NCBI GenBank assembly: GCA_041664605.1
Contig: JBAYKO010000004.1
Coordinates: 1 to 61,487, forward strand
Direction of reading: 5' to 3'
Length of the DNA: 61,487 nt
DNA from: Minisyncoccota bacterium
GTDB taxonomy: Bacteria; Patescibacteriota; Minisyncoccia; Phycocordibacterales; UBA9973
Of this stretch, positions 13,509 through 33,158 are shown in pieces. The translations under genes and the position numbers were made by a program. The notes under the pieces were generated by a model. That model made no database searches. It worked only from the letters and a program-made list of their open reading frames with translations, and was not told the DNA's origin. The first letter of the stretch is position 1. Each line of letters begins with the position of its first letter.

Positions 13509-14089
13509 TTTGGCACCTCTCCTTCTTTTTTTGTTCCCATCTCATTTGCAAAAAAATTTTCTACATACTCATTTAGGCCAGGGATTAATTTTTGACGTAT
13601 ATCCTTTACCAAATTCATGACCATTAGTCTTATTTTATTACTCGTATGAGTTGTTGCTTGTGGTTCAAGAACCTTAACCTCCCCACAAAATTCTTTCAAT
13701 TTTTCAAGATCCTCATTAGAATAAGTTTCCTGTGTTGCAATTAAAACATCTGGTTTGACTATTTTAATCATCTCCCATTTTGGAGCTTCTTCTTTTAAAA
13801 CAACAAGGCCAACATGCCTAATACGACTGATTGTGTCCATTCTTTCATCTTGTGGAATAATAGGACGAGTATCACCCTTTTTCTTTTTTATTTTGGCATC
13901 GTTGTCGACACCAACAATAAGGTAATCTGCTTGTTCTGAAGCTCTTTCAATATATTTTCCATGCCCAGGATGAAAGATATTCCAAGACCCCATTGTTAAA
14001 ACAATCGTCTGTCCCAACATTCTTTGGCACTTTACGACTGAGTTTAATTCTTCTAATGTTGTTACGATTGGCGCATTTCTTGATTTCAT
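13505..14089 (-). CDS. Cytidylyltransferase-family protein (RfaE/TagD-like)
   Basis: GSWNIFHPGH (HxGH), LIVGVDND, RPIIPQDER, TSNKI. Confidence 0.85.
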   Translation of the reverse strand: MKSRNAPIVTTLEELNSVVKCQRMLGQTIVLTMGSWNIFHPGHGKYIERASEQADYLIVGVDNDAKIKKKKGDTRPIIPQDERMDTISRIRHVGLVVLKEEAPKWEMIKIVKPDVLIATQETYSNEDLEKLKEFCGEVKVLEPQATTHTSNKIRLMVMNLVKDIRQKLIPGLNEYVENFFANEMGTKKEGEVPK

Positions 14090-27447: not shown

Positions 27448-30400
27448 TTATTTATGTACTGTAACAGATGCACTACCAACATTCTGCATTGCATCATAGG
27501 CTTTAATTAAAATAATGTGATCACCAGCTGTAACTTTTCTACTATTCCATGTATAGCTATATGAAGGACTATAATCGGTAGATTTTTTAACACCATCAAC
27601 CCAAAATTCTACCTTAACCACTCCAATATTATCAGTAACATTAGCAGTTATTGGAGTACTATTTCCAATAGTAGATCCGTTGGTTGGGCTAGTAATGATA
27701 ACTACTGGAGGAGTGGTGTCAGTAAGAGGTTGTGTTGTTGCCGAAGCTGATGACGATTGAGCAGAATTATTCCCTGCTAAATCGTAAGCAGACACTGTGT
27801 ATGAGTAAGTAGTTCCAGCTATTAGTCCTGTATTAGAGTATGAATTAGTTGCTGAGGTACCAATTTGAGTACCACTTCTATATATCTTGTATCCAGTTAC
27901 TCCTACATTGTCAGTTGAAGCTGTCCAAGATAAATTAATTTGAGTTTGAGAAATAGCTGTTGCTGTTAAGTTGGTTGGAGTAGTTGGAGCTGTAGTATCT
28001 AAGGTAATGGTAACACCATCACTTAAACTATTACTAACATTCCCCATCGCGTCTTTTGCCCAAGCATAAAGTGTTTTTGTTCCAGCTGTTGTAAAGATAT
28101 ATGAAGAAGGTGCACTTAATATCCAACCAGTAGCACCAGATAATGGTTTAGTATTTGTTTCAGTTAGTTTGTAACCAATAACTCCAATATTATCTGAAGC
28201 AGTAAAAGTAGTAATTGGAACCGTCAGTGATAAAGAAGTTGCAGGAATTGTAAAAGTATTCACTACAGGAAGAGTTGTGTCAGGTTGTGCAACAACATAA
28301 GTACCTTGAGCAGTAGCAAATTGACTTGGATCATTTGTTTTAACTAATTTTACAATAAAATTATAAGAGCCTGCTTCTTGATCAAGTGGAGATTTCATAG
28401 ACACAACAACGGAAAAAGTTGCTCCCGGAGCTAAGTCAAAACTAATTGGAGACATAGTGCCACTACTATTTCCATAATTTAAATAAGTAAAACCAAGTGG
28501 GACTGATTCAGTAGTAAATGTAAAATTATTTGTTACGAGAGAATTATTAGTAATAAGAACAATATAATTCGATGTTTGACCAGGAGCAGCTGTTTTGGTT
28601 GATGAACTAAAAAGAAAATCAATATTACTCATATTATTTTCATTTGAATTTGAATTAAAAACCACATAAGTAGCTGTAGCAGAAGCACTACCTCCATTTG
28701 TAGAAGAATCATGGAGAGTTACATCAAAATTATAGAATCCATCTACTGTGTTAAAAAGCGAAGTAACTGGTAAAGTGAAAGTACTAGAAGCTCCAGAAGC
28801 TAATGGAATACTAGGAATACTTGTTGCATAAGCAAAACCCGAAGGTAAGCTTTGACTAATATTAAAATTAGCTGTTGCACATGCTGGAGAATTATTATTG
28901 GTAACTGTAACTGAATAATAAAGTGTTTGAGTAGAATAACCATTTTGACTTAGTGGAGAAATATTAATAGTAGGATTATATTTTGCACATAAAGGATGGT
29001 CAACAGTAACTTGCAAAGTTACTGAACTAGATGTGTGAGAATTTTGAGTTATTGTAATTCCATTAATCAAATCATAAAAAGAAGCACCATCAGTCAAAGC
29101 TCCATCTCGAAAATCTAAAGAAGAATTACTATTTGTGCCAGGAGTAGTATCAAGAAAAAATTGTCCATTATGGCCAGATATATGAATACTAGCACCACTA
29201 GTCATAGTAGTAGGTAAAATTGTATCTATCCCAATAGGTTGACGATATCCAATATAATAAGAATCATCTGTGTTCTCTTTTGGAATTTTAAGCACCTGAG
29301 TCCCCGTTGATTCTGTTTCTAATTTTTGAATAGTATATGTGCCACTAGTTGTGACATCTTGAATATTAATACTAGGGATCACATTTAATGCTACTTTATT
29401 AGGGGAATTAGAAAGAGAAAGACTACTACCCTGACCGTTTCCCATAACATCAAATGGGTCACCATATACAGATACAACACAATTTCCAGATGTACTAATT
29501 GCATCAATTCCACAATCATATGTCGAAGAATGACCCAACCCCAAATTGTGTCCAATTTCATGATAAATAGTACTTTTAGTAAGAGGAATCATAACCGTAT
29601 TATCAATACTATTTTTTTGGATTGATATTATACTCAAATCGCCTCCAGCTTCAGCTACTCCAGTCCATGAATTACAAGATGACCATGGAGGAATAATATA
29701 AGAAACAAATTCATAATCACCTAAGTTATAACCAAGGGCTGTAGCTGCAGCAGTAGCAGGTGCTGTAATTTCTCGATAAGACAAACTCCCCCCACAAAGA
29801 TCAGCTTTTGAATATGGCACAGTAACCCAAGGAGTAACAGCCCCAGAGAAAGAAAACTTATTATTGGAATCTTCTTCATAAAAAGTTTTTAAAGAATCAT
29901 TTGTTTCACTAAAATAAATATCGGAAAGTTGAGAAGAGGTTAAATCTTGATTTGTATAATCAGTAAAAGTAAATGGAATAACAAGAGTTTTGTGATCCCC
30001 TAAAGAAGATTGTCCACTAGTTGGAGGAGAAGTTGTTTCAATAATTGAATCGTCACTTACGGCAATATCAAATTGATAAACTATTCCATTTATTGTAATT
30101 TCAGATCCTGGTTCTAAATTTAATTTTCCTTTAGCTGTATGTATTTCATATTTTTTTCCAGTAACGTCAGTAATGTAATTTTTTTCTTTTAAATAACCAG
30201 TTTTTATATTTTCTTCAATTATCTTTTCAAATTTACCTTTAACACTTTTGTTCTGTTCTATTAAAATTTTAACAGATGCAGGTAGTTTATCGTATATCCC
30301 TTTCGGTAAAGAATTTTTTAAAAACTTATTAGTATTATCTTTAATTAAACCTTTCATTACTTCTGTTCTTTCTTGAAGAACAGAAGTAAGACTAGCTAGT

Positions 30401-30669
30401 GCTGTAGCTTTTTGTGTTTCTGAGGCAGACTGATAAGCCTTAATTTCTTTCAGTAAATCGTTATTTAATTTTTCTATGTTAGATTTATTATTTTGTGAAT
30501 TTGATCCTTGAGTAGCATAAGTTTTTTGAATACCCACCAAACATAGTGATGTAAAAAAAAGAGCAGTAATTATAAATACTACCCAGTGCATTTTTGAATA
30601 AAAAGAATTGTCGTGCCAATTACTATACCAGCGACTACTTCTGAGTAAATGATTATGAATTTTTTTCAT
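27448..30669 (-). CDS. Large secreted/anchored metzincin-type metalloprotease (M11/M6-like) with NEW3-like, fibronectin III and Ig-like domains
   Basis: HEIGHNLGLGH, YGDPFDVMG; APTTPTNLTATA..TQINLSWTASTDNVGVTGY (FN3); PVVIITSPTNG...KVEFWVDG (Ig-like). Confidence 0.85.
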   Translation of the reverse strand: MKKIHNHLLRSSRWYSNWHDNSFYSKMHWVVFIITALFFTSLCLVGIQKTYATQGSNSQNNKSNIEKLNNDLLKEIKAYQSASETQKATALASLTSVLQERTEVMKGLIKDNTNKFLKNSLPKGIYDKLPASVKILIEQNKSVKGKFEKIIEENIKTGYLKEKNYITDVTGKKYEIHTAKGKLNLEPGSEITINGIVYQFDIAVSDDSIIETTSPPTSGQSSLGDHKTLVIPFTFTDYTNQDLTSSQLSDIYFSETNDSLKTFYEEDSNNKFSFSGAVTPWVTVPYSKADLCGGSLSYREITAPATAAATALGYNLGDYEFVSYIIPPWSSCNSWTGVAEAGGDLSIISIQKNSIDNTVMIPLTKSTIYHEIGHNLGLGHSSTYDCGIDAISTSGNCVVSVYGDPFDVMGNGQGSSLSLSNSPNKVALNVIPSINIQDVTTSGTYTIQKLETESTGTQVLKIPKENTDDSYYIGYRQPIGIDTILPTTMTSGASIHISGHNGQFFLDTTPGTNSNSSLDFRDGALTDGASFYDLINGITITQNSHTSSSVTLQVTVDHPLCAKYNPTINISPLSQNGYSTQTLYYSVTVTNNNSPACATANFNISQSLPSGFAYATSIPSIPLASGASSTFTLPVTSLFNTVDGFYNFDVTLHDSSTNGGSASATATYVVFNSNSNENNMSNIDFLFSSSTKTAAPGQTSNYIVLITNNSLVTNNFTFTTESVPLGFTYLNYGNSSGTMSPISFDLAPGATFSVVVSMKSPLDQEAGSYNFIVKLVKTNDPSQFATAQGTYVVAQPDTTLPVVNTFTIPATSLSLTVPITTFTASDNIGVIGYKLTETNTKPLSGATGWILSAPSSYIFTTAGTKTLYAWAKDAMGNVSNSLSDGVTITLDTTAPTTPTNLTATAISQTQINLSWTASTDNVGVTGYKIYRSGTQIGTSATNSYSNTGLIAGTTYSYTVSAYDLAGNNSAQSSSASATTQPLTDTTPPVVIITSPTNGSTIGNSTPITANVTDNIGVVKVEFWVDGVKKSTDYSPSYSYTWNSRKVTAGDHIILIKAYDAMQNVGSASVTVHK

Positions 30670-30776
30670 ATTAAATTAATTGTTAAATATTAATAAATAA
30701 CGATATATAAATTATATCATGTTTGTTCTAGTACTATATAAAAATTGGGTATAAAATAAAACTATTATATATAGTA

Positions 30777-31154
30777 TTATTTAGAAATAATAGTTGAATA
30801 TCTCATCATAACTTGATGATCAATAAACAAAAAAGCCGAGTTGGCTTCTTCGCTGTTATCTTTATAATCTATTCCATCTAAAGCTTCCCACAAAGAAAGT
30901 AGGTTTTGTTTCATGGTTACCTCGTCGTCTGTATTAGATAATTCTATTACTAAGCTTGTTGCATTATAAAGATCTTTAATTGTCCAAGCCTCACTTACTT
31001 TTTTAACAGCAAGAGCAAATTTTTCTTTAAGTAATTTTCTTTCTGTTTCATTTTTTACCAGAGAAATATTGTCGAAAATAGAAATAAAACCTGGAATTAT
31101 ATTTTTGGGTTGTTTTTCATTTTGATTATTTAATTCAATTTTATTTTTTACCAT
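30777..31154 (-). CDS. Hypothetical protein
   Basis: ORF only; predicted helical. Confidence 0.55.
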   Translation of the reverse strand: MVKNKIELNNQNEKQPKNIIPGFISIFDNISLVKNETERKLLKEKFALAVKKVSEAWTIKDLYNATSLVIELSNTDDEVTMKQNLLSLWEALDGIDYKDNSEEANSAFLFIDHQVMMRYSTIISK

Positions 31155-31174
31155 AATATAGATCTCAACTATTG

Positions 31175-31246
31175 GGTGCCTGGAGAGAATCGGACTCTCG
31201 ATACCTGTTCCACAAACAGGAGTTTTACCACTAAACTACAGGCACC
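31175..31246 (-). tRNA. tRNA-His(GTG)
   Basis: G-1 GTGCCTG acceptor pairs with CAGGCAC; C73; anticodon arm CCTGT-TTGTGGA-ACAGG; atypical T-loop TCCGATT. Confidence 0.9.
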
Positions 31247-31270
31247 ATGTAATACTTTACAAAGTATTTA

Positions 31271-31771
31271 TTATTTAATTTTCAAATTTTTTTTAAATCT
31301 ATTTTCTTCTTCTTTATGATGGTGCACAAGATGATGACAATTATGACAAAGCCATGCAAGATTCTTTATTAAATTATTTTTTCTATCCTTGTCTATATGA
31401 TGCACAGAAAGGACTCTTCTATCATTTATTTTACATAGCATACATATTTCAACAATCTTATTTCTTGAAAGTACGCTTCTGTAAGCATATAAACCATTTT
31501 TCCAATTAATGTGTTTCGGACCAACAAATTCCTGATTTCGCCAAAGTGTCTGGCAAGATTTACTACAAAAAAACTTTCCGCTTTTTGAAACCCTTAAGGC
31601 CTTTTTTGTTTTATAAGCTTCCTTTCCACAAACATTACATTTGATTATTTTACCAGTTCGCATTCCTTTATATTGACATTCTGAAGAACAATAAATTCCA
31701 TAACCACGTAATAACCAAGATGGTTTTGTGTAAAAGCTTTTATCACAAATTTTACATTTTACATTTGGCAC
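31271..31771 (-). CDS. HNH endonuclease with two N-terminal zinc-finger repeats
   Basis: CKIC...YCSSEC and CNVC...FCSKSC; CMLC...VHHIDKDRKNN...NLAWLCHNCHHLVH. Confidence 0.9.
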   Translation of the reverse strand: MPNVKCKICDKSFYTKPSWLLRGYGIYCSSECQYKGMRTGKIIKCNVCGKEAYKTKKALRVSKSGKFFCSKSCQTLWRNQEFVGPKHINWKNGLYAYRSVLSRNKIVEICMLCKINDRRVLSVHHIDKDRKNNLIKNLAWLCHNCHHLVHHHKEEENRFKKNLKIK

Positions 31772-31827
31772 ATTTAAATTTTATCAAAAAACAAAATTAA
31801 TGTAAACAAAATAGATTCATAACTTTT

Positions 31828-31866
31828 TCCACAAACTTCAGTGTTAACCGTTACACCATAGGCACC
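31828..31866 (-). pseudogene. 5' half of a second tRNA-His, truncated after the anticodon loop
   Basis: GGTGCCTATGGTGTAACGGTTAACACTGAAGTTTGTGGA; the required ACTTC 3' stem strand is absent. Confidence 0.85.
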
Positions 31867-31933
31867 ATATGTAAAAACAGTCTGTTGACTGCCTTTAATT
31901 TATAGCAAATTTATCGGTAATAAGTAAAGCCAA

Positions 31934-32494
31934 TTAAAATTCGTAAATGTATAAGTTTTTACACAAACCAGAATTAGAGTTTTTTAAAATAACTTTCTCT
32001 CTGTAATTTTTAGAGGAAAATTGAAAATCACATGAAACAACTAATGTCCCACTTTTTAATTCTTTTTCTAGTTTTGGTAATAGCTTATCCATTATTTCCG
32101 GAAAAAGATAAACAAAAATTCTATCTGCTTCTTTTAAGTCAATTTCAAAAAAATTTTTATCTATAATTTTTATTTTTTTATCTTTTTTTGTAAAAAAATT
32201 CTTAATTCTTAATAACAAAAGTGGGGTCGGAGCAATTTCTACTCCAACACAATTGATATTCTTAAACTCTTTTTTACAATCAAATAAGACTCTGCCATCA
32301 CCACAACCCAAATCATAAAGTGTCTGCCCATCTTCTAGTTTTAAATTGGTGATAATTTTACTAATGATTTTTTTTGATACAGGTACAAAAGGAACTTTAA
32401 TTCTAAAAGAAAAATATAAACTGTATGTAAAAAACACAAAAAATATTAAAAGACCAAGTAATAAAATAATTTCTATAATAAATAAAATATTCAT
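31934..32494 (-). CDS. Small class I SAM-dependent methyltransferase with N-terminal TM helix
   Basis: VPFVP, YDLGCGDGR, VGVEI, VYLFPE, VVSCDF. Confidence 0.85.
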   Translation of the reverse strand: MNILFIIEIILLLGLLIFFVFFTYSLYFSFRIKVPFVPVSKKIISKIITNLKLEDGQTLYDLGCGDGRVLFDCKKEFKNINCVGVEIAPTPLLLLRIKNFFTKKDKKIKIIDKNFFEIDLKEADRIFVYLFPEIMDKLLPKLEKELKSGTLVVSCDFQFSSKNYREKVILKNSNSGLCKNLYIYEF

Positions 32495-32499
32495 ATTTG

Positions 32500-32583
32500 T
32501 GCGCGGGAGAAGACTCGAACTTCCAAGCCATTGCTGGCACTACCACCTCAAGGTAGCGCGTCTACCAGTTTCGCCACCCGCGC
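32500..32583 (-). tRNA. tRNA-Leu(GAG)
   Basis: GCGCGGG acceptor, CTACC-TTGAGGT-GGTAG, long variable arm, GGAAG-TTCGAGT-CTTCT. Confidence 0.95.
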
Positions 32584-32663
32584 ATAATTAAAAGCGCTAT
32601 CATTATACGAAAAAGTCAGATTTACTTCAAATTTAAAAATCCTCCGACTTATTCGGAGGACTT

Positions 32664-33158
32664 TTATTCTTCTACTTCTTCTTTTCCTATAATTTCTATT
32701 GCTTTCTCTTCGGCTTCAGGTATTTCGTCTTCTTCAATTATATCTTTATTACCTCCTTGGGAAACAACAGTTGCTTTCATTTTTCTTTTTGCTTCTTTAG
32801 CTGCTTTTTCTCTAATATAATAAAGTTTTGATCTTCTTGTTTTTGCTTTCTTTATAATTTCAACTTTATCTATAAGTGGAGAGTATAGTGGAAATATTCT
32901 TTCAACTCCAATACCGCTTGAAACTTTTCGTATTGTAATTGTAGCACCTGCTTCTTTGCCATGTTTTCTTGCAAGAACAATCCCCTCAAAAGCCTGTAGG
33001 CGAAATTTAATAGTTTTTTCAGTTTTTTTGTTTGCCTTGGTCGATATTTTTTCTTCTTTAATTTTGGACCAAACTCGAATAGTATCCCCTGCTTTTATAG
33101 CTAGAGCCTTTCTTTCTTCAGTATTTACTGGTGTTAATTTTTTAATTGAAATTGCCAT
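32664..33158 (-). CDS. rplS: 50S ribosomal protein L19
   Basis: GDTIRV, RLQAFEGIVLA, RKVSSGIGVERIFPLYSP, RRSKLYYIRE. Confidence 0.97.
   Translation of the reverse strand: MAISIKKLTPVNTEERKALAIKAGDTIRVWSKIKEEKISTKANKKTEKTIKFRLQAFEGIVLARKHGKEAGATITIRKVSSGIGVERIFPLYSPLIDKVEIIKKAKTRRSKLYYIREKAAKEAKRKMKATVVSQGGNKDIIEEDEIPEAEEKAIEIIGKEEVEE

Follow-up and report, generated by a model that had tools for sequence, protein, structure and literature searches.

Why does a bacterial chromosome carry, one after another, half of a tRNA-His gene, an HNH endonuclease gene and a complete tRNA-His gene of a different sequence? The question is raised by a locus of Minisyncoccota bacterium (GTDB lineage Bacteria; Patescibacteriota; Minisyncoccia; Phycocordibacterales; UBA9973; GenBank assembly GCA_041664605.1), a member of the candidate phyla radiation (CPR). 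We analysed positions 1 to 61,487 of the forward strand of contig JBAYKO010000004.1 and refer to this whole stretch of 61,487 nucleotides (nt) as the window. A preliminary description had read the locus as a single swap, in which the nuclease cut the resident tRNA gene at the anticodon and inserted together with a recoded, cleavage-resistant tRNA. The three parts that it named, a 39-nt tRNA-His 5' half, the HNH gene and a complete but different tRNA-His, are all present there on the minus strand. The single swap did not survive comparison with other genomes, which places the locus in a large and conserved family. Most known homing endonucleases come from introns, inteins and phage genomes. Based on the comparison, we consider it likely that positions 31827 (approximately) to 31174 hold a free-standing homing-endonuclease cassette, composed of the HNH and tRNA-His genes, that has invaded and replaced the resident tRNA-His gene.

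The truncated tRNA-His gene and its intact counterparts

The half in the window reads GGTGCCTATGGTGTAACGGTTAACACTGAAGTTTGTGGA and consists of G-1, the acceptor strand GTGCCTA, a paired D arm (GTGT/ACAC), the anticodon stem strand GAAGT and the loop TTGTGGA. It matches positions 1-39 of the tRNA-His profile in nhmmer, and its 38-mer occurs once in the window and in none of 100 shuffles; Rfam cmscan at E <= 10 does not report it. The AAAAG that directly follows cannot pair with GAAGT, and a search of the 61-kb window for the partner 3' half (ACTTC...TAGGCAC) returned only the complement of the half itself. The single intact tRNA-His gene of the window is the one downstream of the HNH gene. Between it and the half, 10-11 of 39 positions are different; the changes affect acceptor position 7, the D arm and the entire anticodon stem. 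The 3' half of the intact gene is not complementary to the stem of the old half, and the claim that the two cannot be spliced together thus holds.

The sequences closest to the half belong to working genes without an HNH neighbour. It is identical at 38 of 39 positions to intact metagenomic tRNA-His genes of three HNH-free loci (L172, L156 and L152) and at 36 of 38 to the tRNA-His of the syntenic relative L085. In three HNH-free loci that are also among its best matches (L111, L119 and L172), a half-type 5' part is combined with the T stem GAGAG/CTCTC, which is otherwise typical of the window-type tRNA; these genes may be chimeras or may represent an ancestral form.

With a 21-nt string from the D arm of the half as the query, we collected 119 metagenomic loci, of which 113 contain an intact tRNA-His, five are cut by contig ends and one is unclear. 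Where at least 700 nt of upstream sequence was available (88 loci), the HNH gene is missing in 86 and stands directly upstream of the tRNA in two. Six further relatives (L085, L087 and L210-L213) were chosen solely by the similarity of their L19 or methyltransferase, and share the synteny of the window, with tRNA-Val/Arg, RluD, L19, tRNA-Leu(GAG) and tRNA-His on the same strand. An intact tRNA-His without an HNH gene is found in each of the six, as the preliminary description expected of relatives, and in five of them the tRNA is of the half's type. In other words, the HNH gene, although present in the 303 species described below, is polymorphic in presence and absence.

Other relatives found through the methyltransferase (L081-L084 and L090) were uninformative, as there is no tRNA-His within their fetched flanks. 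In two of them small GIY-YIG open reading frames (ORFs) flank the methyltransferase homologue (L083, 3020-3283 and 5122-5400; L084, 1612-2010 and 3714-3992), and these may be further free-standing endonuclease genes. In the HNH-free relative L211, a 24-nt 5' fragment, GGTGGCTATGGTGTAACGGTAACA, followed by a degenerate anticodon region (about 13880-14030), lies 75 nt 5' of an intact tRNA-His with an identical 5' end; it may be either a scar of cassette loss or a local duplication.

The HNH/tRNA-His cassette across species

A profile scan of one genome per species identified HNH relatives in 303 stretches, each representing a species. We fetched 80 of these loci, which together with the window make 81. 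In 79 of the 80 a tRNA-His(GTG) directly adjoins the HNH gene on the same strand, and in the remaining one the contig ends at the HNH stop codon. The tRNA is downstream in 73 loci (72 detected by ARAGORN, that of L059 by nhmmer) and upstream in six. In 35 loci the HNH stop codon coincides with tRNA positions 13-15, and where the genes do not overlap, the gap is 2-25 nt, the window having 25. With linkage this tight, transcription of the tRNA must in most loci pass through the HNH gene. Related HNH genes may stand on either side of nearly the same tRNA: the upstream tRNA of L004 and the downstream tRNA of L046 are near-identical over the first 40 nt shown.

The region 5' of the gene also has a common layout, namely a -35 element TTTACA, 17 nt, a -10 element GATAAAAT, about 7 nt and the start codon; at fixed spacing, the -35 is found in 59 and the -10 in 46 of the 81 loci. 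About 9 nt 5' of the -35 there is a TCCACA(A/G) box in 38 of 81 loci, compared with 0.37 expected by chance. Counted from the start codon, TCCACA falls in the range -62 to -42, in most cases at -53 to -49; its reverse complement, TGTGGA, is the sequence of the tRNA-His anticodon loop. In the window the box is not found. Where a half is kept, the TTGTGG of the half and the box constitute the left and right arms of an inverted repeat, and TTGTGGAT and ATCCACAA may be operator sequences for the HNH protein. The palindrome TTGTGG-N6-8-CCACAA was considered as a conserved RNA hairpin and set aside as the principal explanation, because many loci keep the right arm (the box) without the left. In some loci this palindrome resembles a terminator of the upstream gene.

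Probable relics of broken tRNA-His genes

A tRNA-His 5' half is kept 5' of the HNH gene in 17-18 of the 81 loci, the window included. Thus, the triplet of half, HNH gene and complete tRNA, which the preliminary description suggested looking for across CPR, recurs in 16-17 other species with the same breakpoint. The halves end at tRNA-His profile positions 33-43, in or just after the anticodon loop, and lie at about -95 to -56 from the HNH start. Among them are at least four types of D arm, each with a compensated stem (GTGT/ACAC, GCTT/AAGC, GTTT/AAAC and GCTC/GAGC). The halves are 53-82% identical to the tRNA of their own locus, compared with 74-95% to an intact tRNA-His next to HNH in another locus. 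In the window, L011 and L030, which have related HNH genes, the halves share the D arm and have three different acceptor stems: GGTGCCTA and GGGGATTA are found in intact genes elsewhere, and GGAGCTTA has near matches only. Since the halves are of several types and closer to tRNA-His genes elsewhere than to their neighbours, they point to repeated events on different resident genes. Judging from these alignments, repeated truncation of different working genes seems to fit better than the decay of one ancient copy.

In two loci (L060 and L045) a 3' fragment of the ordinary type, comprising the T arm and acceptor strand, lies 17-50 nt beyond the complete tRNA, which places the HNH gene and the complete tRNA inside the old gene. 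We also considered a model in which the element brings no more than a 5' half, to be completed by the 3' half of the resident gene. It agrees neither with the window, where the present 3' half does not pair with the old half, nor with L060 and L045, which keep the old 3' fragment beyond a complete tRNA.

Signs of exchange between hosts, and tRNA-His types

The relationships of the cassette and of its hosts disagree. HNH identity correlates weakly with the identity of the host markers L19, RluD and PduO on the same contigs (Spearman 0.14-0.34). In the clearest pair, L058 and L071, L19 is 95% identical, HNH 63% and the tRNA 56%. A sliding-window comparison of the same pair gave about 73% identity in the flanks and about 58% over HNH and tRNA; for L058 and L066 the corresponding values were about 67% and 75%. 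We read this pattern as evidence for module exchange, not as a sharp recombination map.

As a tendency, the type of the tRNA goes with the HNH lineage and not with host markers. In the host-similar pairs listed, the tRNA-His genes are mostly 88-99% identical when the HNH genes share at least 75%, and 56-70% identical when these share about 60%. There are exceptions in both directions, namely L021/L063 (HNH 75%, tRNA 63%), L004/L041 and L004/L047 (HNH 77-79%, tRNA 63-68%), and L062/L071 (HNH 64%, tRNA 88%). The D arm of the window-type tRNA, TAGTTTAGTGGTAAAAC, occurs in 26 of 80 HNH loci, 25 times in the downstream tRNA and once in a half (L025). It is present in none of the other loci compared, which are not an unbiased sample for this purpose: there are no cases among the six syntenic relatives and none among 111 HNH-free metagenomic tRNA-His genes, the latter set having been selected for the old type. 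On viral contigs the same string belongs to other tRNAs of phage arrays (Gly, Ile, Pro, Met and Gln in those checked).

HNH-linked tRNA-His genes also stand out in their T-loops. The canonical TTCRA is found in 42 of 79 of them, in all 111 HNH-free ones and in 74 of 85 other tRNAs of the same loci; non-canonical loops thus account for 37/79 (47%), 0/111 and 11/85, respectively. Examples are TCCGATT, TGCAAAT, ATCGTCC and AGCATAA, the first being that of the window, with C instead of U at position 55. Resistance could account for the odd T-loops, as could relaxed constraint or the hitch-hiking of poor alleles. Resistance through T-loop changes is plausible because SegB of phage T4 recognizes a T-loop motif of tRNA genes.

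The HNH protein

The protein has two CxxC...CxxxC zinc ribbons (weak TRASH/FCS-type matches), followed by a C-terminal HNH domain with its own Cys4 site. The motif has the form HH...N...H with CxxC/CxxC, as in zinc-finger HNH domains of the McrA/IscB type, and H124, H125, N137, N144, H146, H150, C110, C113, C142 and C145 are invariant in 27 homologues. Sequence and model together indicate the features of the HNH superfamily: His...Asn...His, a predicted beta-beta-alpha fold and a Cys4 zinc site. In NCBIfam and Protein Data Bank (PDB) sequence searches the domain aligns to the HNH regions of IscB and a group II maturase. With an AlphaFold model (predicted local distance difference test, pLDDT, 86), Foldseek found McrA, the Gme HNH nicking endonuclease and IscB, in each case over the HNH part only; the probability was 0.97-0.99 for McrA and Gme HNH, and no match reached E <= 0.001. 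No convincing structural relative of the N-terminal pair of zinc ribbons emerged from PDB searches by sequence and by fold.

The family comprises 742 clusters at 90% identity, with proteins of 160-175 amino acids (aa) that are 55-71% identical, and all named sources are Patescibacteria/Parcubacteria. In a profile search of 1.84 billion representatives, the number of matching clusters was 41 at E <= 1e-30 and rose to 2,324 at E <= 1e-10; many clusters of this larger set have additional zinc-ribbon repeats.

Proposed mechanism

The comparisons made above reveal the linkage of HNH and tRNA-His, a constant breakpoint, relics of different types, HNH-free alleles and the discord between cassette and host. 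To account for these observations we infer a nuclease activity with its target and cut site, a repair pathway, the entry of donor DNA and the sparing of the cassette's own tRNA. The cassette would comprise a promoter, the zinc-ribbon HNH gene and a complete tRNA-His transcribed with HNH or right behind it. In a genome without the cassette, the nuclease would recognize the resident tRNA-His gene; the sequence that it reads is suggested to be the anticodon loop, because the box 5' of its promoter is the reverse complement of this loop. It would then break the gene, and repair from cassette-bearing DNA would copy in HNH together with the linked tRNA-His. The left junction would form at TTGTGG of the anticodon loop, so that the first 37-38 nt stay as a dead half and the rest is usually lost. 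Finally, the tRNA-His of the cassette would take over the essential function; as a result, the cell would survive and the cassette would be hard to lose. Of the insertion model in the preliminary description, two parts stand, that the element lies in or at the resident tRNA-His and that it brought a different one. Its cut at the anticodon is putative, as what lies there is the breakpoint of the relic, and the ordinary-type neighbours discussed next speak against its simple recoding rule.

Evidence against the proposal and alternative explanations

A number of observations weigh against a homing cassette. First, DNA cleavage by the HNH protein and the position of the cut are predictions; the signs of site-specific cutting are indirect, namely the constant breakpoint in the anticodon loop and the anticodon-loop box next to the promoter. 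The domain is divergent, and the curated Pfam cut-offs are not reached (HNH_3, 18.5 vs 24.8 bits; HNH, 15.3 vs 21.4 bits). Second, phages had to be set aside as the vector, since the close family is absent from IMG/VR, where only two weak HNH-domain matches were found, and from 50,697 phage genomes. Third, the HNH copies are intact in 81 of 81 loci, in a sample that was chosen by conserved peptide patterns and therefore favours intact genes, and divergence at third codon positions indicates purifying selection. This speaks against a purely selfish element going through gain, decay and loss, as such a cycle should leave broken copies. Fourth, six loci have the order tRNA, HNH without a downstream tRNA, and in six (L008, L012, L030, L077, L153 and L180) HNH is directly upstream of an ordinary, half-type tRNA-His. 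Carrier immunity therefore cannot rest on one recoded type, and "resistant because recoded" is not the whole story. Fifth, the host genomes of the discordant pairs are only 70-80% identical in DNA, which blurs the recombination boundaries. Finally, in L005, L010, L015 and L018 the half is 97-100% identical, compared with 65-75% at HNH third positions, 66-79% in the spacer and 57-74% in the flanks, while AACTCT, the hexamer that follows GTGG, decays to TTATAT. Judged by its conservation, the half in this clade looks like a constrained sequence and not a decaying relic. One explanation is selection on the half as far as G37; the other is that four related cassettes reached their hosts in separate, recent events. 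Candidate roles for the half are those of operator, homology arm and RNA.

Much of this would be expected if HNH were a domesticated host gene, a regulator or processing factor that binds the anticodon-loop sequence and is inherited mostly vertically in an operon with tRNA-His, the half and the box being regulatory. The invariably intact copies under purifying selection agree with such a gene, as do its almost constant co-transcription or overlap with an essential tRNA, the constant spacing between TCCACA and the promoter in 38 of 81 loci, the half conserved as well as a working tRNA in the L005 clade, and the locus synteny, with L19, RluD and PduO kept upstream in 25-30 loci. Yet the gene is dispensable, as none of the six syntenic relatives and only two of 88 ordinary tRNA-His loci have it. 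Halves of several tRNA types and 3' fragments point to repeated breakage, the relationships of cassette and host disagree, and the half is kept in only 17-18 of 81 loci. For these reasons we regard a domesticated host gene as unlikely.

A former mobile intron is considerably less probable. It would have resided at the canonical tRNA intron site 37/38 and lost its splicing, a complete tRNA copy having been fixed downstream later. The breakpoint lies exactly after the anticodon loop in HNH/tRNA-His loci and, as described below, in LAGLIDADG/tRNA-Leu loci, and endonuclease-bearing insertions have been reported in rRNA genes of CPR bacteria. However, Rfam cmscan of positions 30500-33000 at E <= 10 detected no group I or II intron, riboswitch or other RNA besides the two tRNAs, the ORF precedes not a 3' exon but a whole tRNA with its own, different 5' half, and no pairing is possible between the old half and the 3' half of the tRNA now present. 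The HNH ORF is thus free-standing: it is intergenic, adjoins a tRNA, has its own promoter and lies outside any detected intron.

Least probable of all is a tandem duplication of tRNA-His followed by insertion of a bare HNH gene into the anticodon loop of the upstream copy with deletion of its 3' half: it would yield an identical order of parts, and L044 (full tRNA-His, half, HNH) and the HNH-free L211, with its 5' fragment upstream of an intact gene, are what it might produce, but there is no second tRNA-His beside the matched gene among the metagenomic matches listed, none of full length in the six syntenic relatives (only the L211 fragment), within a locus the half diverges by 18-47% from the downstream tRNA, whose type largely tracks the HNH lineage and not the host, and fragments of the old 3' end lie beyond the complete tRNA in L060 and L045.

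Other endonuclease/tRNA pairs and a possible gene drive

The proposed homing cassette at tRNA-His has a parallel in the same genomes. In 12 HNH loci (L001, L022, L029, L042, L044, L047, L051, L054, L058, L059, L071 and L077) a LAGLIDADG ORF of about 225 aa, matching Pfam LAGLIDADG_3 above its threshold, is located 2-20 nt upstream of tRNA-Leu(GAG) on the same strand, or overlaps it (L047); in L001 it occupies -1322 to -648 relative to the HNH start. In 8 of the 12, a partial tRNA-Leu (A(A/T)TTGGTAGACGCTANNNCCTTGAGGT), broken off at the anticodon loop, is found 5' of the ORF, and it is closer to the endonuclease-free tRNA-Leu of the window than to the tRNA-Leu downstream of the ORF. This is an independent second case of a tRNA fragment, an endonuclease and a complete tRNA, involving an unrelated endonuclease family. 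The tRNA-Leu(GAG) of the window (32499-32583, minus strand) has no LAGLIDADG ORF upstream, L19 ending at 32664. It looks uninvaded by this second element, since its type is that of the truncated fragment in the invaded loci.

Distant HNH relatives are also found next to tRNA genes. P0392 overlaps tRNA-His and is preceded by a second HNH gene. In L232 (1-747) and L053 (about 265-1139) two HNH genes in tandem are directly followed by tRNA-His, which the second of them overlaps in L232; such tandems suggest repeated arrivals at one site. P0406 (161 aa; L234, 2425-3048) overlaps the start of tRNA-Pro(TGG). About 45 nt 5' of its own start there is a weakly matching piece, CGAGC...TTTGGGAT, which may be a tRNA-Pro 5' half in degenerate form that stops at the anticodon loop. 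Viral contigs (L233 and L235-L238) carry P0413-like zinc-ribbon HNH genes within tRNA arrays, for example Tyr/Ile, HNH, Thr/Phe or Ala/Thr, HNH, Gln, and in L233 a T-arm-like piece, GGGTTCAAATCCC, is present in the end of the ORF.

It is tempting to speculate, though only tentatively, that endonuclease-plus-tRNA cassettes of several families form a gene drive that overwrites essential tRNA genes of CPR bacteria, brings odd tRNA alleles to fixation and reuses the remains of its targets. HNH at tRNA-His, LAGLIDADG at tRNA-Leu(GAG) and the distant HNH relative at tRNA-Pro may be examples, and the half with the inverted box may serve as a nuclease operator, a homology arm for the next homing or a small RNA.

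A small nuclease gene thus appears to drive the replacement of a single-copy essential tRNA on bacterial chromosomes, in hundreds of species with tiny genomes. If this is the case, it would explain why tRNA-His sequences depart from the organism tree and why many have odd T-loops. It would represent a natural rescue-type gene drive, which breaks an essential gene and supplies the replacement, and a compact 166-aa zinc-ribbon HNH enzyme that may recognize a defined tRNA-gene sequence. The LAGLIDADG/tRNA-Leu parallel would suggest that tRNA genes are a general landing site in these bacteria. The findings bear on tRNA-based phylogeny, on the annotation of metagenome-assembled genomes, where half-tRNAs and ORFs overlapping tRNAs have to be dealt with, and on the tolerance of minimal genomes to selfish DNA.

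Organization of the locus in the window

The features of the locus are listed in Table 1. A TGNTATAAT-like box, resembling the likely -10 of the former resident gene, is also found 5' of the intact HNH-free tRNA-His in the relatives L212 and L213 and 5' of the halves in L005, L010, L015 and L018. The HNH promoter matches the consensus at 10 of 12 positions and has an extended -10; as it ends only 7 nt 5' of the GTG start codon, the HNH mRNA is probably leaderless. The complete tRNA-His extends from G-1 at 31246 to C73 at 31175.

Table 1. Features of the HNH/tRNA-His locus, in the order of transcription (coordinates refer to the window)
Feature	Position	Strand	Source or remark
Likely -10 element of the former resident tRNA-His promoter (TGCTATAAAT)	31907-31898	minus	read from sequence; putative function
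tRNA-His 5' half, G-1 to position 38 (39 nt)	31866-31828	minus	exact search and nhmmer tRNA-His profile
Position of the TCCACA box, degenerate here (TTATGA)	31822-31817	minus	no match to box
HNH promoter, TTTACA, 17 nt, TG-TAAAAT (TGATAAAAT)	31806-31778	minus	promoter scan
HNH endonuclease gene (166 aa, GTG start)	31771-31271	minus	ORF list
Complete tRNA-His(GTG)	31246-31175	minus	ARAGORN (31245-31174); Rfam tRNA, 63.5 bits

The locus is flanked by methyltransferase, L19, RluD and tRNA-Leu genes on one side and by ORFs of 125 and 1073 aa on the other. As the preliminary description noted, there is no integrase: neither the ORF list nor Pfam revealed an integrase or recombinase in the neighbourhood. 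Downstream of the cassette there is no direct repeat of the tRNA 3' part of the kind that integrase-type elements have. A sub-threshold Rfam match to sbrA (30554-30608, minus strand) is a terminator-like hairpin with a U run. Because it falls inside the annotated start of the 1073-aa ORF (27448-30669), this ORF may start further downstream.

Comparison with known systems

In the searchable literature we found no description of an association between HNH and tRNA-His in CPR bacteria, but several known systems share some of its features. Nanoarchaeum equitans has split tRNA genes, among them a separate tRNA-His 5' half that likewise ends after the anticodon loop. The window, however, comes from a bacterium, has neither the 3' half nor a complementary joining leader, and contains a complete tRNA-His. 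Group I introns in the anticodon loops of bacterial tRNA genes have the same insertion point and may carry an endonuclease ORF, whereas in the cassette no ribozyme is detected, the following tRNA is complete and not a 3' exon, and splicing cannot rebuild a tRNA. Integrase-borne islands and prophages also target tRNA genes, restore their function and leave a partial tRNA copy at one end. The cassette differs from them in having no integrase or recombinase and a size of only about 650 bp. Its relic is an upstream 5' half, not a 3' repeat at the far end, and the restored tRNA has a wholly different sequence instead of repeating the target.

There are also similarities to phage endonucleases. I-TevI represses itself through an operator that resembles its homing site. 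Similarly, a presumed copy of the target (the box and, in some loci, the half) lies just 5' of the HNH promoter, although the operator role of the box is putative here and the window itself lacks it. Phage tRNA clusters hold HNH genes, for example those of the F-Tfl nicking enzymes of T5, and the P0413-like distant relatives lie in viral tRNA arrays. These relatives match the profile at E about 1e-29, with only about 30-40% of the sequence signal in common; they have no particular link to tRNA-His and no described half-tRNA relic.

The nearest case is the intronless homing of SegB in T-even phages. SegB, a GIY-YIG endonuclease of T4, recognizes a motif of a tRNA gene and cleaves genomes that have no SegB; the tRNA genes next to it are passed on with it, at the expense of the recipient's markers (PMC2330249). 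The cassette, by contrast, encodes a zinc-ribbon HNH protein of predicted nuclease activity, resides on CPR chromosomes and has a close family that is absent from phage collections. It is tied to one essential single-copy tRNA, which its ORF often overlaps, and leaves a truncated copy of the target with a fixed breakpoint. Like SegB, it appears to be a stand-alone endonuclease gene beside tRNA genes, and the tendency of the tRNA-His type to go with the HNH lineage resembles the co-inheritance described for SegB.

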